Origin: an uncultured bacterium
Lineage (GTDB): Bacteria; Acidobacteriota; Thermoanaerobaculia; Multivoradales; J023
Length of the DNA stretch: 64,000 nt
Direction: 5' to 3'
Assembly: GCA_965366625.1 (NCBI GenBank)
Contig: CBDUGP010000022.1
Coordinates: 21,165 to 85,164, forward strand
Shown piece after piece: positions 18,218 to 61,228 of this stretch. The notes below the pieces were generated by a model that saw only the letters and a program-made list of their open reading frames with translations, had not been told where the DNA came from and did not search any database. The position numbers and the translations under genes were made by a program. Every line of letters starts with the position of its first letter. Position 1 is the stretch's first letter.

Positions 18218-18342
18218 GGTCTGCTTGGCTCCAGGCCTTGATTGACAAGCCCCACGGCTTGCTTCAGCATCTGCCGGGAAGACTCCAGCCGGCTCGAAGC
18301 CTGCGACCGAACTGCCCGCCGAATTCGAAAGTGAGATCCAAC

Positions 18343-20647: not shown

Positions 20648-20658
20648 CCCCACGAGGT

Positions 20659-20726
20659 TAGGGTAGGGTGCCTGGCACCCTACCTAGGGTTCAGTGCCTG
20701 GGTAGGGTGCCAGGCACCCTACCCAG
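20659..20726. repeat. Pair of long perfect palindromes built on the family-A core and bounded by GTAG/CTAC
   Basis: 20659-20685 is TAGGTAGGGTGCC-T-GGCACCCTACCTA (13-bp arms). 20696-20726 is CCTGGGTAGGGTGCC-A-GGCACCCTACCCAGG (15-bp arms). They lie about 150 bp upstream of the RAYT-like gene. Confidence 0.92.
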
Positions 20727-20876
20727 GACCCAGGCGAGTGGTCGGCCCTGCTTAGAAAAGTTTCCAAGAATCCCCGCCAGCTACAGAATTCGCCGCTCCG
20801 ATTGCGTCTAGGAACTAGTAGTGACCCACCAGTGTGTCCACTGGTGACTACAAAACCTCGACGAAGGAGCGAAGCC

Positions 20877-21925: not shown

Positions 21926-22130
21926 GTGCCTGGCACGACCACGTTGGACACCACCCGGTTGCGGGCTGAGTCGGTGCCCAAGCTGAGCCAGTACCTGTCA
22001 CCACCGGGTTGGAGTACCACCCAGGTGGGATGCCTGGCACCACTCCTTTGGTGGGCGGGATGCCTGGCACCATCCTTTGGATTGGCACCACTCCTTTGGT
22101 GGGCGGGATGCCTGGCACCATCCTTTGGAT
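21926..22130. repeat. Degenerate family-A repeat cluster including a perfect 48-bp tandem duplication
   Basis: GTGCCTGGCAC at 21926, GTACCTGTCACC at 21991 and GATGCCTGGCACC at 22029, 22059 and 22107. 22035-22082 is identical to 22083-22130. Confidence 0.88.
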
Positions 22131-22244
22131 TTGGCTTGGGCAGTTCGACTCGTGGTCGACAAACGAAAATCTCGACGAAGTCGTCGTATTCTCACAGCCG
22201 CTTTGCATGGTCTTGGCAAAATACTGTCGGAGTCATCGCCCTCA

Positions 22245-45800: not shown

Positions 45801-47072
45801 GTCGCGCAGCTCGGTGGTGCCGGAATCCGCCCATAGGCCGCCACCGCTTTGGTCCGCCAGCCATTGCATGGCCAAGGGCAGGTTGACGTCGCTGCCGCCC
45901 AGGGGCAGCTCCCCCTGCTCGCCGACCTGCACCACGCCGCGCCCTAGGGTCTGGCGGAAGAAGGAGCCTTGCCAGAAAGTCCTAAGGTCGTCGAGAAACG
46001 AAACGTCTTGGGTCGAATAGGGCTCGTCCGGGTCGACGAGAAAAATCATGCCGATACGAAATTCATGGTCGCTGTCGATGTCGTCGGGAAAACGCGCGCC
46101 TTCCGCACGGATCACGTCGTCGACGGTCAACGTGCGCTCGGTCGCCTCGATGGTGGCGCCGAGGGACGGTATTTGGGTGACGTCGATCGCGTCGTTTTCC
46201 AACAGGCTGAACGGCGGCACCGCCGATGGTGGGGTCATGCCCATCAAATAGAGGGAGAGCGGGCTGAATCGACGACGCACGGAAGTAGCTGTAAAGGTGC
46301 CATCGCCATTGTCGGTCCACTGACTGCCGTACATGAAATCGTCGACACCGTAGAGGTAGCTCCAATGGGAGCCGTCCCGGCCCAACAAGTCGTCCGTGGG
46401 CCCAGAGCCGTCGTCCACTTGGGGATGCACCAACCAGCGGTGACCGAGTTCGTGATTGATGATCTGCCGCACCCGCTCCTGATCCAAGGAGCCGTCGGGC
46501 AGCCGGTAGTCGGGCAAATACATGCCGTCGATATAACCTTCGAGCCCCTCGCTGCCGAATTCCTCCGACAAATCGAAAACATCCACACCGATGCCTTCGT
46601 CATCGTTGGCGATGCTCCAATAAAGTCCACGCGCCTCGCCGGCGTCCCATTGGAAGTTGGTGAAGACCAGGACGAAGTCGAATCGGTCGGGATTATTCGC
46701 CAGAAACGACCGAGTTACCCATTGGCGGGCCGCCACATTCGAGGCCCCCGACACATCCCGGTCGTAGGGTCCGTCGTAGGAAAAAGGCAGAACGTAAACA
46801 TCGTCTTGCCACACTCCGGCACCCAGGGGCATGGAGCCCTTGCCGGCGTCCGCAGCGGCGAGCAGGCCGTCGACCACCATGCGATGATCGATCACGCAAC
46901 TGTCCGTATGCCGGTGGGTCGACGAGGATTCGGTCGACGAGGATTGGGTCGATGAGGATTGGGTCGACGAGGATTGGCCGGCATCAGGGGCGGCCGCCAT
47001 TTGCCCCACGTTCAAACCGAATAAGAGCAGACACAGAAGCAACGACACGGAAAGAGCACGCAAGCGCATCAT
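24300..47072 (-). CDS. Giant 7590-aa exported protein: HEXXH domain, prenyltransferase/squalene-cyclase-like barrel, CARDB, FlgD-Ig-like, TolB-like propellers, Ig/FN3, internal IPTL-CTERM, then transglutaminase-like and alpha/beta-hydrolase domains
   Basis: Open frame of 22.8 kb with an N-terminal signal peptide. HELGH at 46440-46454; QxxDGGW repeats about 45150-45870; several ...DPxxxIxExDxxNN CARDB ends; (I/L)FSP(N/V)xDG...WDG units; IPTL at 31011-31022; GNDADQA at 30054-30074; AHSLG at 25002-25016. Confidence 0.85.
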   Translation of the reverse strand: MMRLRALSVSLLLCLLLFGLNVGQMAAAPDAGQSSSTQSSSTQSSSTESSSTHRHTDSCVIDHRMVVDGLLAAADAGKGSMPLGAGVWQDDVYVLPFSYDGPYDRDVSGASNVAARQWVTRSFLANNPDRFDFVLVFTNFQWDAGEARGLYWSIANDDEGIGVDVFDLSEEFGSEGLEGYIDGMYLPDYRLPDGSLDQERVRQIINHELGHRWLVHPQVDDGSGPTDDLLGRDGSHWSYLYGVDDFMYGSQWTDNGDGTFTATSVRRRFSPLSLYLMGMTPPSAVPPFSLLENDAIDVTQIPSLGATIEATERTLTVDDVIRAEGARFPDDIDSDHEFRIGMIFLVDPDEPYSTQDVSFLDDLRTFWQGSFFRQTLGRGVVQVGEQGELPLGGSDVNLPLAMQWLADQSGGGLWADSGTTELRDSAEALEALGRAGGYFDTVEDAIRLLDNRSAGAAALRYRKLESLALYSDNQNLIEDLADEAAAEQGPDGGWAAYSRYTADAVTTARAVRALATTGRDGVAETGWQWLVDQQRADGGWGWQPGSPSSVPVTLEVLLAARVVDPEGFWLQPAVESGVAWLLARRVDGGFGDLYPTAAQTALFLQLVLDQPIDQGFVQGAIDFLAAHQSADGSWESSSYKTAAAIKALVAYLLPDPYVDAAEVFATPEDPFDGEGFNLIAAVRNGGADLSTGTEYEWQIYRADDTLALVIPGLLPFLGEVGFTTIDDAVPGDNLPPGNYIVRLVIDPLRKLSQKTRDNDTAEISFRVRTHPEGIDLAMTDGDLLLTPDQVNAVPTAVTVQGIVHNQGLTDAGSAELVVFDGNPADNRRLGSTNVAVASLSQSPFSLDVVLTEARPYLLTVVADPDRLLQDADRFNNSASRQMVLRLEPDLEIRDGGVVATPPAPAVGELVRIDAEIWNGGTTTLGNFQVAFSYTYDGSDFLIQQLAVDGPLAPGESVVVGVDWVPNVGGTLPVTVVADPQGVIGDLDPADNTQILMLAVGASPLANLRVTDESFAFVADPPLQGQTAQITVAIDNPSANDAGPFSAELWLDAIDTGVLLVNQAYAGLAAGGSVDLTSPWYIADPEDRLVYVLVDRVGEVDELDESDNQAFVEPDVQTLPDLAVTGGGIDLTPDFPQVGDSLHLDVRVANPGDQPSPASLLEWLDASGTVLDSVTIPALDGHSEVTLPLDWNPGALSGELDLSVRVNRADLFPEGDYANNVASISVGIQSGDLFISSQIFSPNGDGVRDSTRISFRNGADTVFIFGPRGDLTRTLSVDDGDQAVIWDGLNDRGNLARDGLYQVRVDDLESWVVLDNNLFAVTSELDQLLLTGFISPRVPGYEEERSYFTSMVRSAVVEELYVVERYHAAGTSSSDDEILLQKWNGDDLIELGEYTVGLPLLSANLQGDTFLAGYLGDGPFAIVRYPDNLIQPLDPPDEVGLDPWLSPDGRWVVWASDWQDRLMIQDLENPGSPFEFDAGFYSGNNPCGYSIDWTHNHRANVVVGVNWGESYFYDISLAPEGSDDPPTVEVKGTDNYGGCGGGEIPSVTTADEGSKSAVGVSLYQGPDTATDFDAEQFVWVSSEGYGYYGAGGRAGQSRARGQGADENFRVVWADSSPSATSSPSATSSSSVTAGQKGIIPSALGDGAQGLQKGGYGGSDLNILVIGLQDGEQLEQGSIETQGPWWAPPPVTSVSNDGFVVAMSEEYYGCGADAGLGCVGAGGTGADSETSGRFGRPARLLIDDPEVEARHRAWAEAAAAKGSTKGEGGFRPQSLVDWRSGETRELPFYLDRAVWSPTDKYLVAHLDTAYELDGLLAYFTPAANLTVRLKPRVLFGDAGVDLWILATDRYMDNYRLEYADLNAPELVYEPIGLPSNELLFGESWGTWLPPANGTYRVRLTARDRAGNERAKWRRVVWNGDRDIANLYTENRYMSPRTSPGVKDQLVFHYSVLRPANLDFAIADSNGVVYRQLPVAADVVGPKTTTWDGNDDAGNPVPDGRYLLTYGAATWPIIVDNTPPEVVLRFADTHLAVEIPGDKQPADQDLWINEVFAAVRDDNLEEWQYQSFGRHSDGEWATESLGTETLEKDGDLAWRVVGAHQLVGSERRIIARDMAGNETITARGFRDERLVFTDSEPGCRTDNPPCAYPERPPLGAIGDSTGFLVGEDQILSSFYDTLLLQSTVQSDLSDLRLEYRPISLTGLPSGPWQPGEIEVSHDTVYRQFRTTDVSYATADRPVTVGDRLSAIYWNHPTLSMVSHEVRLRAGSDSGVEVISDPVLFRPEVPLLIEYLGLDENGDRFRVTNASAGIVRSIQLATREVDQFGNVYWQQRYAVIDRLLPGDFVEVSTGCVFVPLGNRLVRAQGSGDLGQEAISLNTGIQNREGYSRLFGGYFPATCAADGSSQLGRGFFGQEDQAPCDPGPAFPNYWVTTGQASPVDGRVPVDPTGALVQRYELLVNGVPRVTIDGPLLSWDYRQSLDLSSLGEGNHELTERYTYVDQPGLLGTCPQSFNVRIDRTPAVAQITEPLSQSVICPSDLTVDVTLDVEEVGSANHRIFLGERLVDSDHFCSPYSSATGFEIERDELSSGAFDLAARLVDQAGNASCTSIPVIIPDLPNIAMVVDPEIFSPVNGLGRPIVAEIGFTTGTPGTYEVQVTDTAGTVLKSYPPGGTDGVEELLFAWDGTDLGGLDVADGIYRAAVTARSPCGAEQTESLPFELDKTPPAVTLSSPEGGELVGSSLEFFGSVTDKNFQRFELQVLWLDGAGDWQPVAGSSREVPGPEQGLGTWNTGSHPPGEYLVRVYAFDEPGNEAWSSEIPVTLRPRNFIRRFMREPELFSPNVDGVLDEVEIEYELIQDALITLTVVDGDDLVVATLTDGELQAGAATVGDGIHALWDGISDAFAVVADGDYTLVILAEDPLVPPTLESEEERLSIIVDTVPPALEVISPRPNSLSGLPLQVVGSQDELHPDTWNLDLQSLESDREPIATGSGVFESRVLDELTNRADGEYLSTFSAVDAAGNSAQKSVIFTIDNTAPAVQIFKPQGGAVINTINESLGLEGEVIEDHLVSYVWSYAPGAMPDDGDFMTLAEDNLLPADGLVSFDWDASGLDDGPYTLRLSATDEPGRTAEVRRIFTVDNTPPDVSIDLPLDGAVIADDTDVLGAVDDANMLSWVLNLKPEGGDLLPPIAAGAANEAGLLAPWTALPVDGEYRLELEAEDRAGNRSETSVSVTVSVAPPQPPILLSAEPNVRDVTLVWQAGAGPAPSAYLVYRDGEEIAGPIVGTTLVDPALADGSYVYTVTALVANGTESDPSNALTATINLNLPVAHISVPSDGDRISDLVQIFGTAHRDTGLSVWRLWVRSAPAGAWQPLNSGSASVLADELGQWDTALPQFPNGFYDLKLEVDDIFGNRATAQINVEVDNEAPVAPVLTFAAATILGGDGVTDDIHVEWMLDPAPADLAGYYLYRNSLLANAPGPVVGSQEPFLIDGTAYDDQDLPDGTYVYFVTAADTADNESAASNESDPITIDTRRPHAIIIDPPDGTEFEESVLLTAETPDLDVESVQFEVQADGTTDWLPLGPALSRRPYVMDFAPATSGLYHLRAVASDALGPDPAPESISLTEIDLAPPSPAELTVRVDGGDIHLTWTAVPDTHGDLAGYLVYRGGDLLTPTALPLTQLTYDDLGLADGYYNYQVTAIDEGDNESAASPWRNGVVMTPTFDFVDPISESPGRSLNGYSERYFESIELQRFVAPDTWQTLAAFASEFEGVTFPTVSLSQGFNTLRYRGEDSDGNRSRWSRELVLVSHPRPTPPANMTAIAAGADVTVDWTESGEPVSFGYALDRDGTPLMDPPASYPYDGAGGHVLSASGGDNADWLRAVDGDTGTSWMPDTDTIDAGTVWQWTWADPKLITEMNLRWGSYARRFSVEVLVDGHWLWWYYRSYNSSTNLYLDLYLPVEGVRVSVPPGSYYCPSCSIAEVGLIGFDLLAPPQVDSGVASGAHEYSALEVNRFGQFSEPSNAIALVSTDPPNPPTGLLAAAGACGAIDLEWQAPSPLPPVLLGYRLYRSADGTVFAPIAMPSSSDLAYVDSGLGLDATFHYRLTTLALESGLEVESAPSNVADATTECTTPPAPELLEPTIAGVPVIWPVPIADVGGRAYPGSLVTLFRDGLDVGVLMLPAAQPMSTVTLDDFDYNAVSFSADQRRIAFDSYGSQEGVSVVDLDSGETWTFFGDEPYEAALDPSGQTLVFLDWNDGWNLFSANLADRSVRQLTTRGGYSSARFSHDGRTLFAVGEDDSSGRTQVLYRDVRSGAETVLFQSYSSISHLAQSPDGRFLVAAFYYGQPLVIDLVEGGAQFVGDYDSLGMSSSPFSPDGSRFVYSQPGGYVEGARLKVVDLETGLVQDVSAADGEFAAVWLDDRTLAYFEIHPVDSDLFSLKTRSMIDGSETVLAADLDRYALPWGDGGPWDLMRTDDGALWLTQDEQLQRRFQPSGTFVLPDVELAVGTNTFVARQELGADVQESLPIEVIVDPDAFGDAEVRSITATPAFPVTGTTVAIDGVARNAGAVELEGLVASLIRTAPSGASDVVVSETFDLASGATRRVRFLWDTTGQEGDFRWRLVLDPADLLVELDETNNVEEMVVPVRETLGAHAEIATDRPAYFLGENAAITAQVTVNDGPAPTLVTLSIEDANGVWVTDVDSWQDETFGYETRVTNSGWSVSGIYPGDYQAVVTVQRAGVEAARASAAFTVGARVAAEVTGSTDRPTYRRGAGANLLARVLNIGDATLRDATVELTVVAVSGLEIARGTEVASTSVPVIALPVGDLLPTPWALDTSPIPPGNYAFTARVVDEPGAELASSEPVGFVITAAGAELQGSVAVAPVSAEPDEGPFTITATVENFGDAPLNDVVVKVDVIDPVRNAVVGHAEAAATSFGAGQSRPFTWDVPLSVSYLQSYLVSLTAERPAAQVGGTVEEPLATSSLLLVDRTPPVVDLLEPTTEIVCSESMLVRVRAIDELSSVFRVFFHLDDSDHDLPLPRESVESEIFSSRVVIDPDRLDPYRVEVFAEDTVNNISTGVAVDFLPTIDDTPPTLDLSGPAEGACVSSAAFTWIADDQQLDSVVATLDGLTYVAGEPVVGDGEHLFELLAVDGCRLSTTASRSFLLDATAPEITVDGVVEGGSYETSVTAQWTMLDVNLTVSSALLDGQPVSSPLVVDTVGDHVLALSATDCAGNVSTVTVAFEVTAQGGLDVGGLLYLPEEVFVGVPLKVDAQVSNLSTGDLPDAQLSLLLVDPETSAVIDSLVVVQTVPMDDQVVLIHSFDTIDLVPGTYRVELHAAGDFGGVPYDLELSRADVEVRAGLEIPTLGPGLLMLLTVLLALAGAVILRRRDAVSRQTEVGLEREVMSQSSVGGRARRSSKGDPSKGYPSQGWVWLGLALLPVWPGLGSPLQAQSATQSGSAAQGESCYGHFPALAKMAQAQLDALPTKSSAVDRELLLEEFIWQEELAHQRQVLARAGGDVDSRLDELEQSAGEKLQALKRAIGEKASLSSQELSELLACAGGSREASPISSRLAPKFDEALVARAPSDRRAFPEGYLAKPSSELIEATAVARKRRVQTQEKSLRFRKAEIVRPDYLAEKVVELAGDPVAIYNFVLQDIRAGHYYGGIKGPEAVLRSGEGNDADQAGLLAELMRLAGFPARLAWGPQQIPTAALLDHFGAANVPALERVLTAAGIGWSPVISGGRPVAYVLDRVWAEVYLPYANYRGVVLDDSGATWLALDPQLKTFDRSVASDPLLDQMAFDADAFFDSYLAGDVCSRPLEQAGACPMPSALVEQEVDGYLGAGQYPQVTAPELLAEQQGEVLPPGMVGVVLGVDGFGLDLADSLTHRVRLRARDGSRVIFDRTVPVADLSGQEATLWYVPATAADEQIVAANGHRLWNTPPYLVNVRLELRTDGEPLVPASLPIAMGRPFELEMTLTSPTVGSTSFVNDHRAGIAAGLGFGAGAEAYAPPNGEPQNTLELLAAMASDYLSAVDDFGARMARLEGLTRVFPRPSVVTVGSLVEPQGSLGLIESLEYKSVFVDADIHSGRLVGDGGTEDRRVAGRWLALTQLEASARERELFEVQGMAAMSADLALALAADRGITVHRIDSANLGTLLPTLPFDSAVLDEIEGWVLAGGEALVPAEAMSFVDWTGVGYVLLDPLTGERRYQISGTLSGGMLAVPWFEVVEGTRVPLSRPHSGPVNRRGEEAVGGKIFDGNLQLATVGETLSDGDYIAFKVEVFDVDQVPVQGAEVTFTVLTGGGSTASGSVVSDSTGLASVDFTLGTKTDESPYYLLFPEEDHSTRAGLNVVAVEVNGHAVPDLFYAIGAPDEVADLEQPYGQTLNGLPHLSLGTPVLALPVDQYGNPISNQDVVFTLNGSPGGEGKGPELISREDKLGCRPGTVIAGECSAGTTVTDDGGVSGVWAWLVLGEDDSYTVTASATGEDGGSAEVSFTGQVRKDWVPGEVFVGFPVLRVSGRGQPSGGEGVGSIEAYPPGETSVPLQVNVHVVREDFGVEACGEDYCRVPLGTFKATRLGESPAPECLPDSCGGGTLDERVQIAFNGAGGGATVSSPDGDGLYSYAVPLPSTPGRYEITATPTAWVGVPVIPDDASHFEAVEPCTEDPLCGGKFEILEVSDENWRSTYVLWSVTGQVTTPTPVVLLGHDGNHEEDTVFNYQIQPSNYPALNTYMFFVEDGTIPFLAQTDGTGDGTATLPQGEMFDHPEGDHEVLMALNVGWVWSPRAGVDVPLTVMSEPEPFSIALLDIDADSNNDDDIDEPQRDDLEEEIEEGDGDQGYGKFVYVNHDNDDGNGSASGDQIPDYADKQVDNEDNLVPLMVELRPEGGNWGAATLTFEYDGPPASQLPDNTGRLLGTKGSHSYYDFTEKKQGILRLWRIENQSDSKEPDLYIVPGTPYSASTFNFGPGNETIKVWVEALNGTQAGGELVTADVTVKLTFEGSEAEQTIRFTPVEANLAVNNSSDGSGGGYNYIRPGVPDGLGWTIDEYDEMMEDQGDGYRFWTSNTANSEAVNMGNIDDLSPLHLQIPAPLIEEGFDFTLQLVDTSRDVDIQLWKAPLNAVGEGLQYLSREDVAEDLIGGFFGGGIFSYSASMSVDYVLRSHERLELTPDETKTGYLFRVDPFASEDTVHEVQMNLLSREKGESDWHTVDSIRMTLEHLNHFFSLWSARGSPSARFTNYKTECHPETSCDAGGGVNTIPHFLYPEAEHVPGTAMPDTDKTQYFMPVHGFNVDLEGAKASFQIVTKRMFWLGFRGNVVGFTWEGDENAPISYIDNVDNSFRSSQSFRELIENKIVGEWGGEAQNIYVMAHSLGNQVVYDALRQHAVDTSGILFRNLYSVEPAIWQEVFWPQQPYSYGLLGGSGGVGGIPDLYGIPITYDEDDLRCDSWTFWFNQEQHSTKESATKLVHSWAWKDYALELMRIDDYAKRNPWVHYDREEGSPTCWRAPVAGQGQPALSNDSPAMMSPRLPERGPIPTSLPDVIRVAYEATQLLIPAGSVENVMTPNNVDATDLNWDFYGHSDFQTSGFPVIYQWYYEVPGQTPRERE
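30942..31022 (-). other. IPTL-CTERM-like sorting signal located internally in the giant ORF
   Basis: IPTLGPGLLMLLTVLLALAGAVILRRR, i.e. IPTL motif, TM helix and basic cluster, ending near residue 5377 of 7590. Confidence 0.8.
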
Positions 47073-47677
47073 TGATCTCCCCCGGTCTCGTCCGCTTGTC
47101 CGTCAGAGCCGTTCTCCGGCACCTCGACTTGGCGCGGGGCCACCAAAGGCGCAAAAGCAACCCCCGACTCGCCGTCCGATTGGCCTTGCCCAGACCCGGA
47201 GTTCACCTTGCCGCTGTCCTCGGACCAAGGTGAATAAACCGTCTCGTGGTCCAACAGCTCCGGACCCACCGCCCGTGGAATTCGGGCCGAAAGCACGGTC
47301 ACCGTCACCTCACCGTCGGGCCTCTTCTCAATCTTCACCAAGCGGTCGGGGATCGGCACCGCCGCCTCGGACGTCGAGCCGGGGCCGGATCCCTTCGGTC
47401 CTTGGATCAGGATCGCGTGTCGATCCGTGATTTCGAGCACCCGCAAACCCGGCTGTCCAGGCACCGCGTCACCCTTGCGCAGGACGTGGAAAAGCTCACC
47501 GCTTTGCACCACCACCTTGCCCTGGGGAAACATACAGCGAGCGACCTCAACACCGGGAAAGTGCTCGGAGAGTCGACCGACGACGCCAGTGTCGGCGACT
47601 GGGTCGGCGAAACTCGGCAACGAAATGAGGGTACAGGCCAGGAAGACGACTAGGCAGGGGTACGCACGGACGGACAT
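47069..47677 (-). CDS. Exported hypothetical protein, first gene of the giant operon (weak PilP/GspC-HR-like segment)
   Basis: Start re-called at ATG 47677 (GAGGAG RBS), with a signal peptide. Its TGA overlaps the giant's ATG (ATGA). Segment VVVQSGELFHVLRKGDAVPGQPGLRVLEITDRHAILI. Confidence 0.65.
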   Translation of the reverse strand: MSVRAYPCLVVFLACTLISLPSFADPVADTGVVGRLSEHFPGVEVARCMFPQGKVVVQSGELFHVLRKGDAVPGQPGLRVLEITDRHAILIQGPKGSGPGSTSEAAVPIPDRLVKIEKRPDGEVTVTVLSARIPRAVGPELLDHETVYSPWSEDSGKVNSGSGQGQSDGESGVAFAPLVAPRQVEVPENGSDGQADETGGDQ

Positions 47678-48211
47678 GGGGAGGCTCCTCGCGGCGGACA
47701 GACCGCGGACACACGGGAATCCCAGCACGACCCGCGTTCGCGAGGTTCAACGGACATTCAGACCAGGGCGGTCGGCACACATTGAGCCGCGATCGGGTTT
47801 CGAGCCGAGATCGGAAGGGACTCGGGACAAAATAAACTCGCGATTTCTGGCCCTGCCGCTTTTTTACCGAGTCGACAAGCGGTCTCCTCAATGGGGTCAG
47901 CAGGGGTAAAACTGACCACCGAGTCAACGCGCTTGGCGGGCAAGGGCCAACAGAGTCATAGACGAAACCGAAGGGAGACTTTACACAGACTGCCGCATCT
48001 TGGCAAGTATCTCCCCATCTACATGTCCACATAGGATCGGCAGATCAGTGGATCTGATCACTTTGCATCCGAAAAAGCGAAAGCTCTTCCGGCAGAATGC
48101 CGCACCTCGACGTACCCTGCTCACTCACAGGGTCCATCGCCCTACCCTTCTGACTTTACCCAACGGACAACTTTTCTAGACAAGGAAACCCACCCTCGGA
48201 GCAACAACCCA

Positions 48212-48501
48212 GAACAACTACCTGGTACCGGTCAACTTAGAACAACCAGAACAACTACCTGGTACCGGTCAACTCAGAACAACTACCTGGTACCGGTCTA
48301 CCCCGAACAACTACCTGGTTCCGGTCTACCCAGAACAACTACCTGGTACCGGTCTACCCCGAACAACTACCTGGTACCGGTCCAAACAAGGACCACGACC
48401 CGCCGGAACAACTACCTGGTTCCGGTCCAAACAGCAACACGACCCGCCGGAACAACTACCTGGTTCCGGTCCAAACAAGGACCCGGACAACTACCTGGTT
48501 C
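48212..48501 (+). repeat. Direct-repeat array of family-B 22-mer GAACAACTACCTGGTWCCGGTC
   Basis: Full copies start at 48212, 48249, 48277, 48305, 48333, 48361, 48406 and 48450, with a partial copy at 48487-48501. Start-to-start spacing is 37, 28, 28, 28, 28, 45, 44. Confidence 0.92.
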
Positions 48502-48666
48502 TGCCACAGCACGGTCTGCCGCCTCCCTGCCATGCAAATCTGAACGGGATTTTTGACCGCAAATTCGGATCACGATGCGGGTTTCGGACCCGGCTTTCGC
48601 GTTGCCAAATGAACCCCTCGGCACGCCGGTCTCACGGTGGGTCGCAATTCCCTTGGAGACCACCGC

Positions 48667-50373
48667 ATGTCCAGTTCTCGTTTTCCATTCGTTTCTCAAG
48701 CCAAGGTTCTGAGGACCTTCTGCCTATTCCTACTGGTCGGGTGCGGTTTCGCCCACCAACTCGCAGCCGACGAAGGCGCGGTTTACCGTATTTCTACCCC
48801 TGTCTCCGAGCTAGACGAGCTGCGCCGACAGGTCGATGTTTGGGCCTACTACCCCCTATCCGCCGAAGCGATCACCTTCCTGACCCCCGAGCAGCGCCAA
48901 TGGATGGAAGAGCGAGGTCTGGTTCCCCAGCTGGATGTCCAACGCACGGCGGAGCTGCGTCGTCATCGACCGAAGGCGGATCAGGTCGGCAGCGGTATCC
49001 CCGGCTTTTCTTGCTACCGCACCGTGGAGGAGACCTACGCGGATCTATTCGCGGCGGCCACGGCCAACCCGAATTTGGCCTCTTGGCTCGACATCGGCGA
49101 CAGCTGGCAGAAGACCGTCGGCCAGGGGGGTTACGACCATCGGGTTTTGGTGTTGACCAACCAGAACATCGCCGGTCCGAAACCCGTTTTCCTGCTGATG
49201 GCGGCCATGCATGCTCGGGAATACGCCACCGCTGAACTCGCCACCCGCTACGCCCTGCACCTACTCAACGGTTATGGAACCGACCCCGAGGCCACTTGGC
49301 TTTTGGATCATCGAGAGATCCACATCGTCGCCCAGCAGAATCCGGACGGGCGAAAGCGAGCGGAGACCGGTCTCTCCTGGCGTAAGAACACCAACAACGA
49401 CTTCTGCTCCGACAGCAACAATCGAGGTGTGGACCTCAATCGCAACAGCACTATCTTCTGGGGAGGCGGCGCCTCGAGCGGCTCCCAATGTAGCGAAACT
49501 TACCGCGGACCGTCGGCGGCTTCGGAGCCGGAAACCCAGACCATCGAGGACTATATGAACCAGGTCTTCCTCGACCAAAAGGGCGATATGGCGGATCCCG
49601 CGCCGGACACGGCCGAGGGGGTCTTCATTTCCGTGCACAGCTTCGGAGAGCTGGTGCTTTTCCCCTGGGAAGGCACCAACAACGACAGCCCCAACCATGC
49701 AGGTCTGCAGACCTTGGGTCGTCGATTCGGCTTCTACAACGATTATTCGGTTTGCCAGGATTGCTTGGGCACCGCCTCCGGCACCACGGTCGACGTGGCG
49801 TATGGCGAATACGGGGTCGCCGCCTACACCTTCGAGATCGGCAACACTTTCTTTGAGGGCTGCGTGGCATTCGAAAGCTCGATTTATCCCGACAACCTTC
49901 AAGCACTGATTTACGCCGCCAAAGTCGCTGATCGGCCGTATCAAAAACCTTCCGGCCCCGACGCGCTCAATCTTCAGCTATCGTCCCGCACCGCAGGGGT
50001 CGGTCAAACCGTGACCCTGCAAGCCACCCTCGACGACACCCGCTTCGACTCCAACGGTTTCGGCACCGAACCGGTGCAAAACATCAGCTCCGGGCGGGCG
50101 TCCTTCGACTTGGCCACCCTCGAGAGCGGCGGCGGCACGGCCCTCACCGCCGTGGACGGAGCCTTCGATGAAACCCAGGAAGAGGTGACCGGTAGCGTCG
50201 ACATCAGCGGCTTGTCCATCGGACAACATCTGCTCTTCGTGGTCGGCACCGACGAGTCGGGTCAGCAAGGTCCGCCCGGTGCCATTTTCGTCGACGTGAC
50301 GGTACCTTCGGAACTTTTCGCGGACGACTTTGAAGACGGCACCATGGCGGCTTGGTCCTCGGCAGAGCCGTGA
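48667..50373 (+). CDS. Secreted M14 zinc carboxypeptidase (carboxypeptidase T-like) with C-terminal Ig-like domain and FxDDFExG motif
   Basis: Start re-called at ATG 48667 (GGAG RBS). Motifs MHAREY (HxxE), WRKN, GVDLNRN, FISVHS and YTFE. Confidence 0.9.
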   Translation: MSSSRFPFVSQAKVLRTFCLFLLVGCGFAHQLAADEGAVYRISTPVSELDELRRQVDVWAYYPLSAEAITFLTPEQRQWMEERGLVPQLDVQRTAELRRHRPKADQVGSGIPGFSCYRTVEETYADLFAAATANPNLASWLDIGDSWQKTVGQGGYDHRVLVLTNQNIAGPKPVFLLMAAMHAREYATAELATRYALHLLNGYGTDPEATWLLDHREIHIVAQQNPDGRKRAETGLSWRKNTNNDFCSDSNNRGVDLNRNSTIFWGGGASSGSQCSETYRGPSAASEPETQTIEDYMNQVFLDQKGDMADPAPDTAEGVFISVHSFGELVLFPWEGTNNDSPNHAGLQTLGRRFGFYNDYSVCQDCLGTASGTTVDVAYGEYGVAAYTFEIGNTFFEGCVAFESSIYPDNLQALIYAAKVADRPYQKPSGPDALNLQLSSRTAGVGQTVTLQATLDDTRFDSNGFGTEPVQNISSGRASFDLATLESGGGTALTAVDGAFDETQEEVTGSVDISGLSIGQHLLFVVGTDESGQQGPPGAIFVDVTVPSELFADDFEDGTMAAWSSAEP

Positions 50374-50451
50374 CAGGTTGACTCGCCGGCACGGCCCTGC
50401 ATCCTTCCGGGCTGCCCCGAAGGGGCGAGGCATGAGTAGCCTCGGAATTTA

Positions 50452-50616
50452 TTCCGTGGCGACCGGCTCGAACACGGACTACATGCCCTGGGCTGACGGC
50501 GATTCGGCGAAATAACCCCCGGATTGTTCCGTGGCGACCGGCTCGAAAACGGACTACGCGCCCAAGGCTCATGGCGTTCGTGCCCCAAGATCACGGCGAT
50601 TCGTCGAAATAACCCT
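50452..50616. repeat. Two-part degenerate tandem repeat between convergent genes
   Basis: 50452-50482 and 50527-50557 match at 30/31 nt. ACGGCGATTCG(G/T)CGAAATAACCC occurs at about 50496 and 50593, the second copy being the VWA gene 3' end. Confidence 0.75.
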
Positions 50617-53799: not shown

Positions 53800-55586
53800 G
53801 ATCCGACCTCAACCTCCACAGTCAAGGTGGAGCCCACGTCAGCGAGGTCGTCGCGCAGGCCTACCCCCAGCACTTGGCGCCCCTGGCGGATGACCAGTTC
53901 GGTGGGATATTCAAAAGTGCTCGAAAGGGCTTCCATGAGATGAATATTCTTGACTTCAAAGGGCAAACGAATGCGCACGGGATCGCTCAGCCCGCCAGTG
54001 TCGTCGCTGACCACGAGCACCAAGGTCAGCTTGCCGGAATGGGAGATCTCACCGGGCAGCAGCACCAGATTGGCCATCGGGACTTGGACCTCGATCGGCA
54101 GGCGATAGAAACCGTCCTTCTGACGTTTGGCTTTGCCCAGTTCCACGCGCGCGTCGAGGGGATTCACCTTGGTGCCCAGAAGGACCGAGGACAAGGTTCG
54201 GTCCGCCATTTGTTGGTCGCCGGACTTGTCTCGATACTCTTCCAGGTACCGAATCTTGACCCCTGGTCTTTGGATTCGCACCTCTATCTTGTGGGTCTTG
54301 CCGTCCCCACGATGGGGTGAGGCATAAGCCAAGGAGTAGTAATCCGTGAGATCAGATTGCAGAGCGGCGAAAAATCCGTCGACGTCACCCCGTCCAATAG
54401 CAGCCCGTCCACCCGTGCGCTCCGCTAGCCATAACAGCCCAGAGTCCTGTTCCTTAAATTGCGCGAAACCCGCGCCTCCCACGGAAACGCCACGGCTTTC
54501 CGCGCCCACCAGGCTCGGCCCGGCGTCGGCGCCCACACCAATGGGATAAAAGGCAACCCGATTGGAGTTGGCGTCGGCGATCAGCTCCCGCACGGCAGCG
54601 GAGGTATCGAATTCCGCCAACGCGGCGTCGACCGAACTCACTCCGAGTTCGGGGCCCCAATCGAAGCCAAACTTTTGAAACCAGGCGCGCCAAACCAGCT
54701 CACCCGGTCGGGTCGGCAGGCGATCGGCCACGTAGAGCAAGGCTTTGCGTCCGGGCAAGCCGGCTAGGGATCCTAGGAAGCTCTTCAGCAGGCCCAGGCT
54801 CACCTGCATTTCGGCGTGCATTTCTTGGCTGTGACGGCGGGCTTGTTGGTGGGCGGAGCGGGCGTCGAGCAAAGAGGTCAGCTTCGTGGCACCGCCCGCA
54901 CCTCCGGGCCCCGAACGCGCAAGACCTTCCGTCGGGCCGGAGGTAATGCTTTGAATGATCCGCGCCACCTCCATCCGGCTGCTCGTACCAGGTTGTTGTA
55001 CCAGTCGCTGGAGAGACTCACGAACAGCACCGAGATCCGAGGTCAATGGCTGGACAATTTCCACCTTGCGATCCTTGCTCACCAGCAGCACCCGAGTCCC
55101 CTGTGCCACGGTCTTGTCCAGCTGCGCCGAGATCCGGTCAAAAGCCATCTTGCCCGCCGTCGGCGCCAGAAATGGATGGTCTACGAGGATGACCAGAGTC
55201 GAAGGCTCTTGGGGCTCTGCCGTCTCCTGCTCAGGTGATTCAACGTCGTTCTTCGGCACCACTCTTCGACCGTCTTGAACGCGGTAGAAGTGACTGATAT
55301 CCATAGATTTACCGTCATCCAGCAGCTCGAAATCCGACGCCTCGAGATCCGTCACGGGCAGACCTTCTTGCTCGGCGTAGACCTCGATATTGATCAGGCT
55401 GACATCCAGGGAATCCAAGAAAATGCCGTGGCGTCGAACCTCCTCGTCCCATCCACCGTCCTCCTGCGCCCAAGACGCGGGAACAGCCTGTAGCACCAGA
55501 AATACAGCCGTTGTCAGTAGCGCCCACTTGCCCTGCCAAGGGGATCGAACCGAGTCAAACCGCCGAGAACTCTGCGTATCGTCCAT
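53796..55586 (-). CDS. VWA-related protein of the acidobacterial type (degenerate MIDAS)
   Basis: Signal peptide. VSLINIEVYA...PVTDLEASDFELLDDG, LAGLPGRKALLYV, LAERTGGRA and YYSLAYA. Confidence 0.82.
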   Translation of the reverse strand: MDDTQSSRRFDSVRSPWQGKWALLTTAVFLVLQAVPASWAQEDGGWDEEVRRHGIFLDSLDVSLINIEVYAEQEGLPVTDLEASDFELLDDGKSMDISHFYRVQDGRRVVPKNDVESPEQETAEPQEPSTLVILVDHPFLAPTAGKMAFDRISAQLDKTVAQGTRVLLVSKDRKVEIVQPLTSDLGAVRESLQRLVQQPGTSSRMEVARIIQSITSGPTEGLARSGPGGAGGATKLTSLLDARSAHQQARRHSQEMHAEMQVSLGLLKSFLGSLAGLPGRKALLYVADRLPTRPGELVWRAWFQKFGFDWGPELGVSSVDAALAEFDTSAAVRELIADANSNRVAFYPIGVGADAGPSLVGAESRGVSVGGAGFAQFKEQDSGLLWLAERTGGRAAIGRGDVDGFFAALQSDLTDYYSLAYASPHRGDGKTHKIEVRIQRPGVKIRYLEEYRDKSGDQQMADRTLSSVLLGTKVNPLDARVELGKAKRQKDGFYRLPIEVQVPMANLVLLPGEISHSGKLTLVLVVSDDTGGLSDPVRIRLPFEVKNIHLMEALSSTFEYPTELVIRQGRQVLGVGLRDDLADVGSTLTVEVEVGS

Positions 55587-55864: not shown

Positions 55865-56812
55865 TTAGCCTGACACCCAGGCTAAGTCAGAGGCCGGATC
55901 GACAAACGGCAGCCTGCTGGGAAAACAATTCCTTGGAAAGCTCACCGAACGGTCTCCCGCCTTCAGCCGCTCTGCAGCGTCGAAATAGGCGGTGGTGATC
56001 AGACCGAGCGCCTCACGCATATCTCGCCGTACCCTTTGACGAAAAGCATGGAATAGCGGTTTAGGAGGCGTCTCAAGCTCTTCCGGACGGAAATGTGGAT
56101 CCCCCGCGAGCACCGCAAGCACTCCGAGCGGGCTCGTTCCTTCAGCCGCATGGACCTTTGCCGTCTCGTCCTCGATCTGCCGAACCATCTCGGTGACGTA
56201 ATCCCGCCGGGTTGCGGCATCCACTTCTTGCCAACAAGGCAAGGGAGCCAATGGCAACTCCAGCTCTTCTGTGAAATCGTCGAGAGTGACAGCCTTGCCC
56301 TTAGCCCGAGCGCGGCTATAACCAGATCGGTCGATCCAAATGCCCTTCAGCGGCTCACCGGTCATCAACGCTGCGGCAAAACCGACCCCTGGCCACTGGA
56401 TCGGCGACCCAACAAGGCCTTCCTTACATCCGTGTTGCAAACAATAGGTCAGCCTTCCGATCTGAGCCTCCGGCTCCTCGGAAACCTCCGTGGCGCGGTA
56501 TCTCTCCGGGAAGGTCGAACCCTTCCAGTCATAGGCAATGCCGCTCTCGATCGATAGTTTTCGAGTGAAGTCCCTCATAAAATTCGCCTGGGCCCGCACC
56601 GAGCCGGCCCGTAGGTACAGGTGGAAGTGGTTCGCGGCAAAAGCCCCGCCATAGATCTCAATTCCATGTCGCTCACGGGCCTTGGCCAGGGCGCCGACGA
56701 TGATGGCGTTGAAGCGAGGGCTCGGTTGGATCAGGTGGCGACCTTGAAAAGTGCGGTTGACGACTTCGACGGTGGCGTTGGGATGGGTCCAAAGCCTGGG
56801 TTGTCTGGGCAT
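55865..56812 (-). CDS. REP-associated tyrosine transposase-like (RAYT, Y1 HUH) protein 2
   Basis: AGGAG RBS. MPRQPR, HUH ANHFH, FPERYRA, RLTYCLQH and GLVGSPIQWPG. Homologous to 20877-21818 along its whole length. Confidence 0.85.
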   Translation of the reverse strand: MPRQPRLWTHPNATVEVVNRTFQGRHLIQPSPRFNAIIVGALAKARERHGIEIYGGAFAANHFHLYLRAGSVRAQANFMRDFTRKLSIESGIAYDWKGSTFPERYRATEVSEEPEAQIGRLTYCLQHGCKEGLVGSPIQWPGVGFAAALMTGEPLKGIWIDRSGYSRARAKGKAVTLDDFTEELELPLAPLPCWQEVDAATRRDYVTEMVRQIEDETAKVHAAEGTSPLGVLAVLAGDPHFRPEELETPPKPLFHAFRQRVRRDMREALGLITTAYFDAAERLKAGDRSVSFPRNCFPSRLPFVDPASDLAWVSG

Positions 56813-56955
56813 GATGTGCTCCTAGGATTCCAGTCGGATTTTGCATGTCGAGTAGGCGCAATGCCTACACTCCTAGGAGAGTTAGGACGAAGAAGAGGTC
56901 GCCAATTCTGCAGATTCTCGAAATTTCCAGAAAAAATTTCAGCGTTGGGTACCCG

Positions 56956-57003
56956 GAACATCTACCCGGTACCGGACCGAAGAACATCTACCCGACACCG
57001 GAC
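56956..57003 (+). repeat. Two family-B-like repeats upstream of RAYT 2
   Basis: GAACATCTACCCGGTACCGGAC (56956-56977, 19/22 identical to the 48.2-kb unit) and GAACATCTACCCGACACCGGAC (56982-57003). Confidence 0.8.
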
Positions 57004-57026
57004 CGAAATCCCCTTAGAATAACTAC

Positions 57027-58373: not shown

Positions 58374-61228
58374 TCCTCACCGTCGACCGACAAACCGTCG
58401 AGATCCGAACCGGCGAATCCCTGCTCGTCGCCATGTTGCGCGCTGACCTTCATCCCACCGGAGGCGGCTGCCTATGCCTCGCCGGCGACTGCGCCCACTG
58501 CCTCGTGACCGTCGACGGCGTGGCTTATTCCCGGGCCTGTCAGATTCCGGCCCGCCCCGGTTTGGTGGTGGAACGAAACCACCGTGACGGCGCCCCTCCC
58601 TTGGCTCTTGAAGACCAGGTTCTTGAAGACCAGGTTCTTGAAGACCTGGCCCAAGGGCACCATCCCGGACAGGGCGTCGACATCCCAAGCCGGCATCTCT
58701 GGTGCGATGTGGTGGTGATCGGCACTGGACCCGCGGGTCGGGCGGAGGCCGAGCAGGCCCGAGCCGACGGCCGAGAGGTGGTGACCCTGGACGCGGCGGA
58801 CGGCCAGGAGGTGGTCGGCATTTACCAGGGTCCATTGGTGGTCGCGCGCACGGCCGAGGCCACGCTTTGCGTCCATCCCCGGGATGAGGTCGTGGTGGCC
58901 ACCGGAGCGGCCGAGCTTCAACCCGTGGTGCCCGGATCCCATCTCAGAGGACTGCTGACCGCACGAGCCGCAACCGAACTCGCCGCCGCCGGTTTCGAAC
59001 TCGGCAAGGTGGTGGCCATTGGCGAGTCGCCCGCTGGGCTCGAAGCCCAACCAGCCGACGGAACGCTTTGCCGCTTTGAAGGCAACAGCAAGGGTGACGG
59101 CAAGGGCAACGGCAAGGTCGAGGCGGTGGTGACGATCGACGAGAAGGGTCGAGAGTGTCGCTACCCCTGCGACACGGTTTCCTTAGGCCTTGGATTCCAA
59201 GCCCGGGACGCCCTATTGCGCATGGGGCGCGGACTGCCCGTGCGGGCGGTGGGTGACGCGGCGAAAACCTTCGATCCACCCCCTTGCCCGAGCTCCGGTG
59301 AGATTTGCCCGTGCGCCGGCGTCATCGTGGAGGATTTAGAAAGCGTCTGGCAGCGCGGGTTCCACGAACTCGAGCTGGTCAAGCGCGCTACCCTCGCCGG
59401 CACCGGGACTTGCCAAGGATCCACCTGCCTGCCCTATTTGCGCAGCTTCCTGGCCGCCAAGGGCGGTGAGCTCCAAGCCCCGTTCACTGCGCGTCCCATG
59501 ACCCGCCAACCCACCGTCGGCGAAATCGCCGCCGGTGCCTTTCACCAGAGCACGCCGCGCACCCCGCTCCACGACGAGCATTTGCGACTCCACGCGCGCA
59601 TGGAACGGTCGAGCGGCTGGTGGCGACCTTGGACCTACGGCGACACCGAAACCGAATACTTGGCCGCCCGCAAGGCAGTCTCCATCGGCGACATCGGCAC
59701 CTTGGGCAAATTCATCGTCGCGGGCCCCGACGCACAGGAATTCTTGAACCTCATTCTGCCGACGCGAGTCGAGACCCTAAAACCCGGAGCATGTCGCTAC
59801 GTCTTGTTGTTGGACGAGCGGGGCTACGTGGTGGACGACGGGCTGATCGCCCGTGAGCACCAGGACCCCACCGCCGGCAGTCGGTTCTACTTGACCCTGA
59901 CCAGCGCAGGTTCCACTTTCGGCGAGCTGTGGCTGCGGGATTGGGCCGAATCCAAAGGGGACGTCACGGTGCTCAACCAAACCCAAAGCCTCGGCGCCAT
60001 CAACGTCACCGGACCGAAAGCCGCCGAGCTACTAGCGCGGGCCGGCACGACCTTCTTGCCGTCGTTTTCGCGCCACGGCCACGCCGAGGTCGCCGGCATT
60101 CAGTGTCGGATCTTGCGCTTGAGCTTCACGGGCGAGCTTTCCTACGAGCTGCACCATGCCGCCGCCGACTCGGTCTTTCTTTGGCGCGCCCTGCTCGAGC
60201 TGGGAAAAGACCTGGGGATCCGCCCCCACGGCCTCGACGCCTTGCTCAAATTACGCCTCGACAAGGGACATCTGGTGGTTGGGCTCGATACGGACTTCGA
60301 CTCCACCCCCCGTCGGCTCGGCTATGCTTGGGCGGTCAGACTCGATAAGGACGACTTCGTCGGCAAAGCGGCCATCGAGCGCACCAACCGGATAGAGCTC
60401 GACCGTCAACTGGTGGGTCTCGAAATGGACCTGCCGGCGCCTCCCCAGGGCACCGTCGTTCGCCGCCCACGGACCGACGGAACCTACGAGTCCGACGGGA
60501 CTGACGAGCCGGTCTACGCGGGATATGTCACTTCGAGCAGCGCTTCTCCCGTGCTCGGACGGGCGGTGATGCTCGCTTGGATCGAGCAAGTGGACGGTCA
60601 ATGTCCCCGTGAGCTGGTCGTCGACGGACGCCCCGCCCGTCGGGTAGATCTGCCCTTCTACGACCCGAAACACCAGCGCTCGAGAGCTAAGGTTCCCTTC
60701 GAGCACGGCCGAGACTCGGCCGAAGGCCGGGTCAAGGGCCGGGTCGAGGGCAAGGCCGACCGCGAGCCGGCAAACGGCGGGTCCGAAGACCTAGGGCGAT
60801 TTCAACGTCTCGAAGGCACCCGCATTGCCGGGCCGGCTCACCTCTTGGATCGGCTCCAACTGCCGTCGGATCGTCTCTGCCTGCCCATCGCGCCCGACGA
60901 GCTTCTGATCACCAGCTCGACTCACAAAGATGACCTAAAGCTCGACGGCGGCGGAGCAGACGCCCTAGATCGCGTTCTCATCGAGCGGGAAACCGGCTTT
61001 GCAGCCGCCTGGCTGGACATGGAAGAAGCCCTTGAATTCCTGGAACGATCGTGCAGCTGGCCTTTGCCGGCCGCGCCTGTGCCGGCCGCGCCTGTGCCGG
61101 CGGATCGGCCCGCCTTTGCCCAAGGTCGGATCGCGGACCTGCCGATCAAGCTTTGGTTCGAAGAAATGCGGGTGCTTTTCCTGGTACCAGGTAGTTGTGC
61201 GGCGGAGCTCGAGGCGCGCATGAAATGA
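58370..61228 (+). CDS. Sarcosine-oxidase-alpha-like protein (2Fe-2S, FAD, BFD-like, GcvT folate domains) with a fused gamma-like C-terminus
   Basis: Start re-called at ATG 58370 (ATGA overlap). Motifs CLCLAGDCAHC...RAC, IGTGPAG, ICPC...KRATLAGTGTCQGSTC, RTPLHDEH, DIGTLGKF, SFTGELSYELH and LRLDKGH, followed by a gamma-like tail. Confidence 0.85.
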   Translation: MILTVDRQTVEIRTGESLLVAMLRADLHPTGGGCLCLAGDCAHCLVTVDGVAYSRACQIPARPGLVVERNHRDGAPPLALEDQVLEDQVLEDLAQGHHPGQGVDIPSRHLWCDVVVIGTGPAGRAEAEQARADGREVVTLDAADGQEVVGIYQGPLVVARTAEATLCVHPRDEVVVATGAAELQPVVPGSHLRGLLTARAATELAAAGFELGKVVAIGESPAGLEAQPADGTLCRFEGNSKGDGKGNGKVEAVVTIDEKGRECRYPCDTVSLGLGFQARDALLRMGRGLPVRAVGDAAKTFDPPPCPSSGEICPCAGVIVEDLESVWQRGFHELELVKRATLAGTGTCQGSTCLPYLRSFLAAKGGELQAPFTARPMTRQPTVGEIAAGAFHQSTPRTPLHDEHLRLHARMERSSGWWRPWTYGDTETEYLAARKAVSIGDIGTLGKFIVAGPDAQEFLNLILPTRVETLKPGACRYVLLLDERGYVVDDGLIAREHQDPTAGSRFYLTLTSAGSTFGELWLRDWAESKGDVTVLNQTQSLGAINVTGPKAAELLARAGTTFLPSFSRHGHAEVAGIQCRILRLSFTGELSYELHHAAADSVFLWRALLELGKDLGIRPHGLDALLKLRLDKGHLVVGLDTDFDSTPRRLGYAWAVRLDKDDFVGKAAIERTNRIELDRQLVGLEMDLPAPPQGTVVRRPRTDGTYESDGTDEPVYAGYVTSSSASPVLGRAVMLAWIEQVDGQCPRELVVDGRPARRVDLPFYDPKHQRSRAKVPFEHGRDSAEGRVKGRVEGKADREPANGGSEDLGRFQRLEGTRIAGPAHLLDRLQLPSDRLCLPIAPDELLITSSTHKDDLKLDGGGADALDRVLIERETGFAAAWLDMEEALEFLERSCSWPLPAAPVPAAPVPADRPAFAQGRIADLPIKLWFEEMRVLFLVPGSCAAELEARMK

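Follow-up and report, generated by a model that had tools for sequence, protein, structure and literature searches.

What owns a tandem array of short repeats that lies between two divergent gene units of an uncultured acidobacterium? The question is raised by positions 48212-48504 of a 64,000-nt stretch of contig CBDUGP010000022.1 (hereafter the window). An earlier note on this DNA had described an array resembling CRISPR (clustered regularly interspaced short palindromic repeats) and had suggested a second repeat family paired with RAYT 2, one of two genes in the window, RAYT 1 and RAYT 2, whose products resemble REP-associated tyrosine transposases (RAYT; REP, repetitive extragenic palindrome). 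The REP/RAYT pair is the textbook example of a transposase that has been domesticated and on which a population of short repeats depends. A REPtron is composed of a RAYT (TnpA-REP) gene and its cognate REP or REPIN family, as described in E. coli, Pseudomonas and Stenotrophomonas (Nunvar 2010; Bertels & Rainey 2011; Ton-Hoang 2012; Quentin 2018). Here we find that the array belongs to a repeat, family B, which accompanies the clade of RAYT 2 across genomes. Based on sequence comparison, and with moderate confidence, we propose that the array arose by local tandem expansion of a site cognate to a RAYT2-clade HUH enzyme, and that this site would have been seeded and homogenised by the enzyme and resized by slippage or unequal exchange. 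It is most likely the counterpart of the REP cluster in a REPtron, with an asymmetric, non-hairpin unit of 18 nt, GGTRCCAGGTWRDTGTTC.

An array of direct repeats between divergent genes

Exact pattern matching found eight copies of the 22-nt unit GAACAACTACCTGGTWCCGGTC in the window, starting on the plus strand at 48212, 48249, 48277, 48305, 48333, 48361, 48406 and 48450, against an expectation of 0 from 100 dinucleotide-preserving shuffles of the window. The eight full units (48212-48471, minus strand) are arranged head-to-tail, as found by pattern counting and Tandem Repeats Finder, and on the minus strand, in the sense of RAYT 2, they read GACCGG(T/A)ACCAGGTAGTTGTTC. The start-to-start steps between them are 37, 28, 28, 28, 28, 45 and 44 nt. 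A degenerate ninth unit, GGACAACTACCTGGTTCTGC on the plus strand, follows at 48485-48504 in the same minus-strand orientation, 163 nt 5' of the start codon of a Peptidase_M14 carboxypeptidase gene. The array linkers measure 15, 6, 6, 6, 6, 23, 22 and 13 nt, and several of them are identical or near-identical. Tandem Repeats Finder reports nested periods of 37, 28 and 44 nt, none of them divisible by 3, because the linkers vary and recur and the first one holds a partial unit.

The array sits in a 938-nt gap that separates the unit of the open reading frame (ORF) at 47069-47728 (minus strand) and the giant-gene operon from the divergent M14 gene (48667-50373, plus strand). The 5' region of the M14 gene bears an array both in the window genome and in the syntenic relative L025 (related contigs are given L numbers, and some of their RAYT-like proteins P numbers). 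Only one other window site, 56956-56977, lies within three mismatches of GAACAACTACCTGGTWCCGGTC, and it has all three. The earlier note was therefore right about the eight full copies with their partly re-used linkers of 6-23 nt, about the location in the divergent promoter region between giant operon and carboxypeptidase, and about the 19/22 identity of the unit to the site 144 bp 5' of RAYT 2.

Four independent assemblies of this species reach across the whole array. Eight full units and the degenerate one are present in the window and in L037, and six and one in L035 and L038; the difference amounts to two adjacent 28-nt units. Contigs L036 and L039 terminate within the array.

The repeat accompanies the RAYT2 clade

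Two family-B units with a period of 26 nt, GTCCGGTACCGGGTAGATGTTC and GTCCGGTGTCGGGTAGATGTTC in the RAYT sense, lie at 56956-57007 on the minus strand, 144-195 nt 5' of RAYT 2, and this pair is unchanged across eight independent contigs of the same species. The 18-nt motif GGTRCCAGGTWRDTGTTC, a consensus derived from 41 aligned units, occurs in head-to-tail arrays just 5' of 9 of the 11 RAYT2-clade genes from other contigs. In L025, which is fully syntenic and encodes a RAYT protein 72% identical to RAYT 2, the gene is preceded by three copies of GGTGCCAGGTAAGTGTTC. Units of GGTGCCAGGTTGATGTTC stand 5' of the RAYT gene at non-syntenic loci of GCA_030431255.1 and ERZ25074695, numbering three in L024, at least five in L030, three in L031 and two to five in L043. 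L040, whose protein P0004 is 69% identical to RAYT 2, has five to six copies of CGTACCAGGTAGATGTTC 5' of the gene. L027 has a single partial unit, and the three units of L034 run the other way, reading AGGTGCCACGTAGTTTCC on the antisense strand.

A 12-position pattern matched 22 times in the 5.5 kb made up by the sense-strand 500 nt 5' of the 11 genes, and 23 times in the 438 kb everywhere else, which is a 76-fold enrichment; 18 of the 23 matches away from RAYT genes fall in four further intergenic arrays. Positions 15-17 of the motif vary by lineage. The M14 array of the window has AGT, the RAYT 2-proximal units and those of L040 have AGA, the three arrays of L025 all have AAG, and the P0007/9/11/15 subclade has TGA. 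The identity groups of the RAYT proteins divide along the same lines. Therefore, the motif is tied to the RAYT2 clade and evolves in concert within a genome. Co-variation of RAYT clade and flanking motif across genomes, which the earlier note had named as a check on the pairing, was thus run with a positive result, the triplets following the subclades.

A strict pairing gene by gene is not supported. In GCA_030431255.1, three paralogues that are 80-85% mutually identical share one motif. In addition, P0004 (L040) and P0005 (L041; 66% identical to RAYT 2) were recovered from the samples that also yielded the window organism, at matching coverages (4.41 vs 4.51 and 7.64 vs 8.09), and are probably further paralogues in its genome, which may thus hold four or more RAYT-like paralogues. 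The P0004-proximal units are one to two mismatches from the unit of the M14 array, whereas the RAYT 2-proximal units are three mismatches from it, so that, by this sequence comparison, the cognate enzyme may be either RAYT 2 or a paralogue, for instance P0004. The idea that a second repeat family goes with RAYT 2 thus stands at the level of the clade, given the nine of 11 homologues and the co-variation, and is not supported in its strict form of one paralogue with one repeat.

The metagenome-assembled genome GCA_030431255.1 carries at least five RAYT2-clade paralogues (L024, L030, L031, L032 and P0031 on the L031 contig), 56-85% identical to one another and set in unrelated neighbourhoods, an unusually large number for a 'domesticated single-copy' RAYT. 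At L040, the array of five to six units (CCACCCGTACCAGGTAGATGTTC) 5' of the gene is accompanied on the 3' side by a different repeat, 34 nt in two copies, with TGGCACCA.

The RAYT 2 protein and its family

RAYT 2 (55865-56812, minus strand) is a 315-aa protein assigned to the Y1/HUH group by fold comparison, weak profile matches and conserved residues. Its HUH motif is NHFH (H62, H64) and the catalytic-type Tyr123 lies within RLTYCLQHGCKEGLV; H62, H64 and Y123 are invariant across 22 homologues of RAYT 2. RAYT 2 has no Pfam match at E <= 0.01. PF01797 (Y1_Tnp) is matched weakly by 20 of its 22 close homologues, and remoter homologues of about 40% identity bear PF01797 or the JGI name RayT. The NCBIfam model REP_Tyr_transpos (NF047646) gives E values of 0.017 for RAYT 2 and 2.8e-12 for RAYT 1, both under the curated cut-off. 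The AlphaFold model of RAYT 2 has a mean pLDDT (predicted local distance difference test score) of 79. Its best Foldseek match in the PDB is 4er8_A, a complex of E. coli TnpA-REP with a REP hairpin, with a probability of 1.00 and a target template-modelling score of 0.57, followed by about 25 IS200/IS605 TnpA chains, all with a probability of 1.00. A sequence search of the PDB with the RAYT2 profile gave nothing significant, and fold comparison alone succeeded. Taken as modelled, RAYT 2 belongs to the Y1/HUH superfamily, with a TnpA-REP-like fold and the HUH/Tyr set intact.

The protein is about twice as long as the canonical core and has a C-terminal extension of about 170 aa, which is confidently modelled and for which the Pfam scan found no family and no helix-turn-helix (HTH) or other DNA-binding domain. 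The Tyr motif of the family is Y-x-L-x-H/N-G/S-x-K-E-G/N-L. RAYT 1 (20877-21818, plus strand) is a paralogue with the same 313-315-aa architecture, 45% identical to RAYT 2 in a gapless alignment. A profile of this long family matches 647 clusters (50% identity) at E <= 1e-30, mostly over the full length; a search of metagenomes with the RAYT2 alignment returned four short loci only. The RAYT2-clade paralogues are 56-88% identical and not near-identical, and no tnpB adjoins RAYT 2. An IS200/IS605 insertion sequence, which would show several near-identical gene copies with subterminal hairpins that move together, often with tnpB, was ruled out for RAYT 2 by the syntenic L025 orthologue (72% identity), the diverged paralogues and the lack of an adjacent tnpB.

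Copies at other sites

The M14 orthologue of L025 has an array of three to five units of its own variant 5' of the gene, beside blocks that align with the 5' region of M14 in the window, and the distance from array to M14 start is about 165-180 nt in both. Arrays are also found in convergent 3'-3' gaps, at L025 16305-16380 (between the VWA and M14 stops) and at L030 8247-8409. Therefore, the arrays are not restricted to promoters, and REPs, too, are found in such 3' gaps. The three family-B-type units of L025 stand where the window has, in the convergent M14/VWA gap (50380-50590), a direct repeat of about 84 nt in two copies with GTAGTCCGT(G/T)TTCGAG. Degenerate family-B relics were considered for this repeat, and the similarity was too weak to call.

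Inside genes, the core GTACCAGGTWGTTGT matches exactly at 61184-61198 and 54985-54999, against an expectation of 0.00 with up to one mismatch. Both copies are on the plus strand and inverted relative to the arrays. One, GTACCAGGTTGTTGT at 54985-54999, is in frame in a 596-aa gene (LVQQPGT), 866 nt past the RAYT 2 stop; the other, GTACCAGGTAGTTGT at 61184-61198, is in frame near the 3' end of a SoxA-like gene (LVPGSC). The opposite-strand match of 16 nt that the earlier note had placed at 61183-61198, in frame as LVPGSC, is thus real and has a companion. The two copies flank RAYT 2 on either side, 0.9 and 4.4 kb off. Both are identical in the L025 orthologues (about 11897 and 5600), synonymous sites included, while the intergenic triplet of L025 differs. 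From this comparison they seem to be ancient in-frame copies that coding constraint has kept unchanged. REP units inside genes have been described before (PMC3733652, Table 1; PMC6006769, section 12).

Family A and the 36-kb segment

The repeat beside RAYT 1, family A, is represented by CCTGGCACC, which occurs 22 times in the window against 0.87 expected. Two GTAG-footed palindromes, GGTAGGGTGCC-T-GGCACCCTACC, lie at 20655-20735, 5' of RAYT 1, with a strong single-stranded fold (z = -8); the units beside RAYT 1 are perfect palindromes with a 10-bp stem (z of -4 to -8). Further sites are 22033-22131 and 24166-24260, and a 48-nt repeat in two copies lies 3' of RAYT 1. A long head-to-tail array of family A type (..CAGGTGCCTGGCACCAC..) occupies 12400-12800 on the plus strand. 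Similar to family B, family A has the core CCTGG[C/T]ACC, makes long head-to-tail arrays in intergenic regions away from its RAYT gene and is tied to a paralogue of the same architecture. In family B, however, one arm is replaced by the tail GTAGTTGTTC and the unit cannot fold. The L025 unit is intermediate between the two families. The family A array unit at 12483-12504 carries the family B core CCTGGTACC.

L025 is collinear with the window from 63.5 to 48.8 kb and then jumps to 12.3, continuing to 9.9 kb. The 36-kb segment 12302-48211 of the window is missing from L025 (vs 18340-18576). It contains an M28 peptidase, a Laminin_G_3 protein, a halogenase, RAYT 1 and a 7590-aa ORF with its leader ORF. 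At its left edge is the family A array of about 400 nt, which begins about 30 nt past a conserved terminator (12340-12385), and the family B array forms its right edge. At the corresponding junction, L025 carries a single array, just past the orthologous terminator. Judging from this arrangement, the 36-kb difference could have arisen when the segment was lost between two direct arrays or when it was inserted into a single array. Since the arrays mark both edges of a difference between related genomes, a role in rearrangement is testable. The giant gene (24300-47072, minus strand) is a single 7590-aa ORF with a G+C content of 0.63-0.66, vs 0.58-0.61 around it, and is preceded by a 219-aa ORF (47069-47728, minus strand) with a 4-nt overlap. 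Compared with named sequences, the methionine aminopeptidase of this organism reached at most 66% identity (Puniceicoccaceae), followed by Caldilineaceae, Verrucomicrobiota and Planctopirus at 52-59%, a result that points to no single phylum.

Comparison with known systems

Similar to a REPtron, RAYT 2 is a single-copy, vertically kept Y1/HUH gene that is syntenic in a relative with a 72%-identical RAYT 2 orthologue. A short repeat adjoins it and recurs in other intergenic regions, with in-frame intragenic copies, and this repeat is particular to the RAYT lineage, alongside which it evolves; two different RAYT-like genes of one genome go with two families. Each tnpA-REP has its own REP family, and several such genes lead to several families per genome (PMC6006769, section 12). 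RAYT-specific repeat families are thus already established; what is new here is the non-palindromic tandem form and the long RAYT-like family. Unlike a REPtron, the family-B unit is non-palindromic and forms no hairpin, and only some lineages have a GTAG-like tetranucleotide, which does not mark a stem foot. In the window, L040 and L034 the unit contains GTAG, in L025 GTAA and in the P0007 subclade GTTG, in each case with no stem to flank. The units are all head-to-tail and 5' of the gene only. In addition, RAYT 2 has twice the usual length, and its Tyr motif, Y-x-L-x-H/N-G/S-x-K-E, differs from the Y-x-x-x-N-P of class 2 TnpA-REP (Quentin et al., PMC6006769). With no palindrome, no inverted pairs and one-sided flanking, three of the features that define a REP are therefore lacking. 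The relationship that defines REPs, a RAYT-specific and co-evolving repeat family, is present as far as the sequences tell.

Two other systems come close. TIRtrons are TIRYT (TnpA-Y1 subclass 2.1) genes between non-REP terminal inverted repeats (Di Nocera 2013, PMC3733652). They share with RAYT 2 a long Y1 protein with a C-terminal extension; their flanking repeats need no hairpin, some of these form moderately abundant families and clusters, and TIRYT groups are known from poorly studied phyla, e.g. Acidobacteria (PMC3733652). Unlike them, RAYT 2 is not bracketed by an inverted pair in the intergenic DNA on its flanks; the only inverted copies, at 54985 and 61184, belong to coding sequence. 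Family B and RAYT 2 also lack the GGGGWSAS motif and a detected HTH-type Pfam domain. TnpA-Y1 class 3 and subclass 2.6 (Quentin 2018, PMC6006769) resemble family B in having flanking repeats without the GT[AG]G consensus, with weak structure and with copies elsewhere in the genome, and class 3 occurs in Planctomycetes and Acidobacteria with several gene copies per genome possible (PMC6006769). However, class 3 and subclass 2.6 proteins measure about 180 aa and bear the motif Y-x-x-x-x-Q or Y-I-H-[QN]-N-P, and the repeats beside them are still structured, whereas RAYT 2 has 315 aa and its repeats are unstructured.

The lack of a hairpin is the main difficulty for assigning the array to a RAYT2-clade enzyme. 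To our knowledge, every characterised Y1 enzyme recognises a DNA hairpin. In single-stranded folding of both strands, single units, three-unit blocks, the RAYT 2-proximal pair and the L025 array folded no better than shuffles (z from -0.5 to +2.4), which rules out the unit as a REP hairpin; the family A element, used as the control, gave z = -4.2 for one unit and -8.0 for the pair. The sub-core palindrome TGGTACCA of the window unit becomes the non-palindromic TGGTGCCA elsewhere, with A/G at motif position 8 and no compensating change. The exclusively head-to-tail order without inverted pairs, an arrangement described as rare among REPs (PMC3733652), also weighs against this assignment, as does the one-sided placement: no family-B copy was found in the 3' gap of RAYT 2 or in the other 3' intergenic gaps examined. 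REP families run to tens or hundreds of copies dispersed over the intergenic DNA of a genome. In the 64 kb of the window, sites are few, with two intergenic sites and two intragenic copies, and two RAYT2-clade genes (L032, L041) have no array 5' of the gene. Scans of public collections located no further loci: the relaxed 20-mer GAACAWCTACCYGGTWCCGG gave 14 singletons in unrelated taxa among 185,579 species genomes, about the estimated chance level, and the exact 22-mer had no match in JGI metagenomes. Finally, the difference between six and eight units may be a real length polymorphism, or it may be a short-read assembler collapse of a 56-nt exact repeat.

A possible mechanism and its alternatives

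We propose that a RAYT2-clade protein, either RAYT 2 or a paralogue such as P0004, would recognise the motif through base-specific contacts on one strand or through its C-terminal domain, and not through a hairpin. The protein might then nick and rejoin the motif, by which copies would be seeded and homogenised, and replication slippage or unequal recombination would alter the number of units, as between six and eight. The arrays could also serve as recombination substrates because they are direct repeats, which fits their place at both edges of the 36-kb segment. Effects on transcription of M14 or the giant operon would be secondary. A bolder version, which we offer tentatively and think unlikely, is that some members of a widespread, hitherto undescribed family of RAYT-like HUH proteins of about 315 aa have left hairpin recognition for a linear asymmetric 18-nt site, and that the arrays are protein-loading platforms used by the host, for gene regulation or for large deletions and insertions such as the 36-kb segment, and not selfish REPIN-like replicators.

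The chief rival is that the arrays are duplex-DNA sites of a regulator, possibly the RAYT-like protein acting through its C-terminal domain, which would control the RAYT gene (autoregulation) and a small regulon including M14 with no transposition-like chemistry. The motif is asymmetric, hairpin-free and conserved over 17-18 nt, as protein-binding sites are. At RAYT genes the arrays have a fixed place, 70-110 nt 5' of a promoter-like box (described below), the position of the M14 array about 165-180 nt 5' of the start codon is kept in two species, and the RAYT 2-proximal pair is invariant in eight contigs. The concerted change of site and protein is likewise seen in co-evolving regulator/operator pairs. 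However, arrays also occupy the promoterless convergent 3'-3' gaps of L025 (16305-16380) and L030 (8247-8409), no HTH or DNA-binding Pfam domain was detected in the C-terminal part, and unit number and spacing (26, 28, 37 and 44 nt) are irregular and possibly polymorphic. The invariant HUH and Tyr residues argue for retained catalysis and thus against a mere regulator. On balance, we regard this rival as possible, with a rather low probability. The units were also considered as promoters themselves. A sigma-54 promoter (TGGCAC-N5-TTGC) was rejected, as family A and B units, inspected by eye, have no TTGC at the right spacing; an extracytoplasmic function (ECF)-type promoter in each unit (GAAC-N14-GGTC) was rejected, as its GTC part is not conserved in L025 or in the P0007 subclade. 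The GC skew of the RAYT-sense strand across loci gave no signal of a replication-strand bias, because the skew takes either sign by locus.

An inert minisatellite would need no protein partner at all: slippage in AT-poor intergenic DNA would have made the array, and its likeness to the RAYT 2 site would reflect common descent of neighbouring DNA. The strict head-to-tail order, the re-used linkers and the nested periods of 28, 37 and 44 nt are typical of slippage, and the possible 56-nt length polymorphism and the lack of dispersed copies in public collections fit as well. It is largely refuted, and we consider it very improbable, by the occurrence of the motif 5' of RAYT2-clade genes in non-syntenic contexts (L024, L030, L031, L040, L043), by the 76-fold enrichment there and by concerted lineage-specific substitutions at arrays kilobases apart. 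As for a CRISPR-like or other small-RNA-producing array, which the earlier note's wording had brought up, the likeness is confined to the visual pattern of repeats with short linkers, and no defining respect agrees. CRISPR repeats measure about 23-50 nt and alternate with unique spacers of similar length. Here the repeat has 22 nt and the 'spacers' 6-23 nt, several of these being identical or near-identical and one holding a partial repeat; there are no cas genes among the Pfam-scanned genes of the window, and Rfam gave no match at E <= 1 save a chance snoRNA match elsewhere. The units do not fold, and the sole terminator-like site of the region is a weak, chance-level match. We give this reading almost no credence.

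The interest of the case lies in a RAYT-like clade with intact catalytic residues that is consistently tied to a hairpin-incapable repeat, present in direct tandem arrays only. HUH/Y1 enzymes are also used as DNA-tagging tools. If the protein does act on these sites, the recognition modes of HUH/Y1 enzymes would be wider, and one genome would hold, beside the classical palindromic family, a second and structurally different repeat partner, a natural pair for specificity experiments. Should the motif turn out to be scarce genome-wide and RAYT 2 not bind it, the array would be a minor lineage-specific minisatellite.

A conserved box upstream of RAYT-like genes

Between the proximal repeats and the start of RAYT 2 lies a conserved element on the minus strand (56852-56910). 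It consists of a box, CAGAATT-N14-CGTC (56886-56910), followed by a hairpin, GTAGGC-attgc-GCCTAC (56852-56868). The box, in the general form (T)GCAGAATT-N14-CGTCC, was found 5' of all 13 RAYT-like genes compared, 70-205 nt from the start and with a spacing of always 14 nt; these are the two window genes (56852-56910, minus strand; 20784-20850, plus strand) and the genes of L024, L025, L027, L029, L030-L032, L034, L040, L041 and L043. The two RAYT genes are its only sites within the window. At L032 the promoter-like box is present and the repeat array is absent. A short hairpin follows about 10-18 nt past the box. Its sequence varies by locus, the pairing is kept in 12 of 13 loci and the folding z score is negative in all 13. 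RNAalifold on the leader 3' of the CGTC box gave no consensus structure, since the alignment does not bring the hairpins into register, and individual folds were used. By its sequence, the box looks like an ECF-sigma-type promoter with a stem-loop in the 5' leader, or like a relic of an IS200-like left end; the ECF promoter used for comparison is TGCAAC-N17-CGTC. Several loci also have, in the vicinity of their RAYT-like genes, a recurring gene cluster that encodes an ECF-like protein with sigma-70 region 2 and a TPR-CHAT protein, together with unknown ORFs; it lies at 5267-10305 of the window, 1-1660 of L041 and 18576-20954 of L025.

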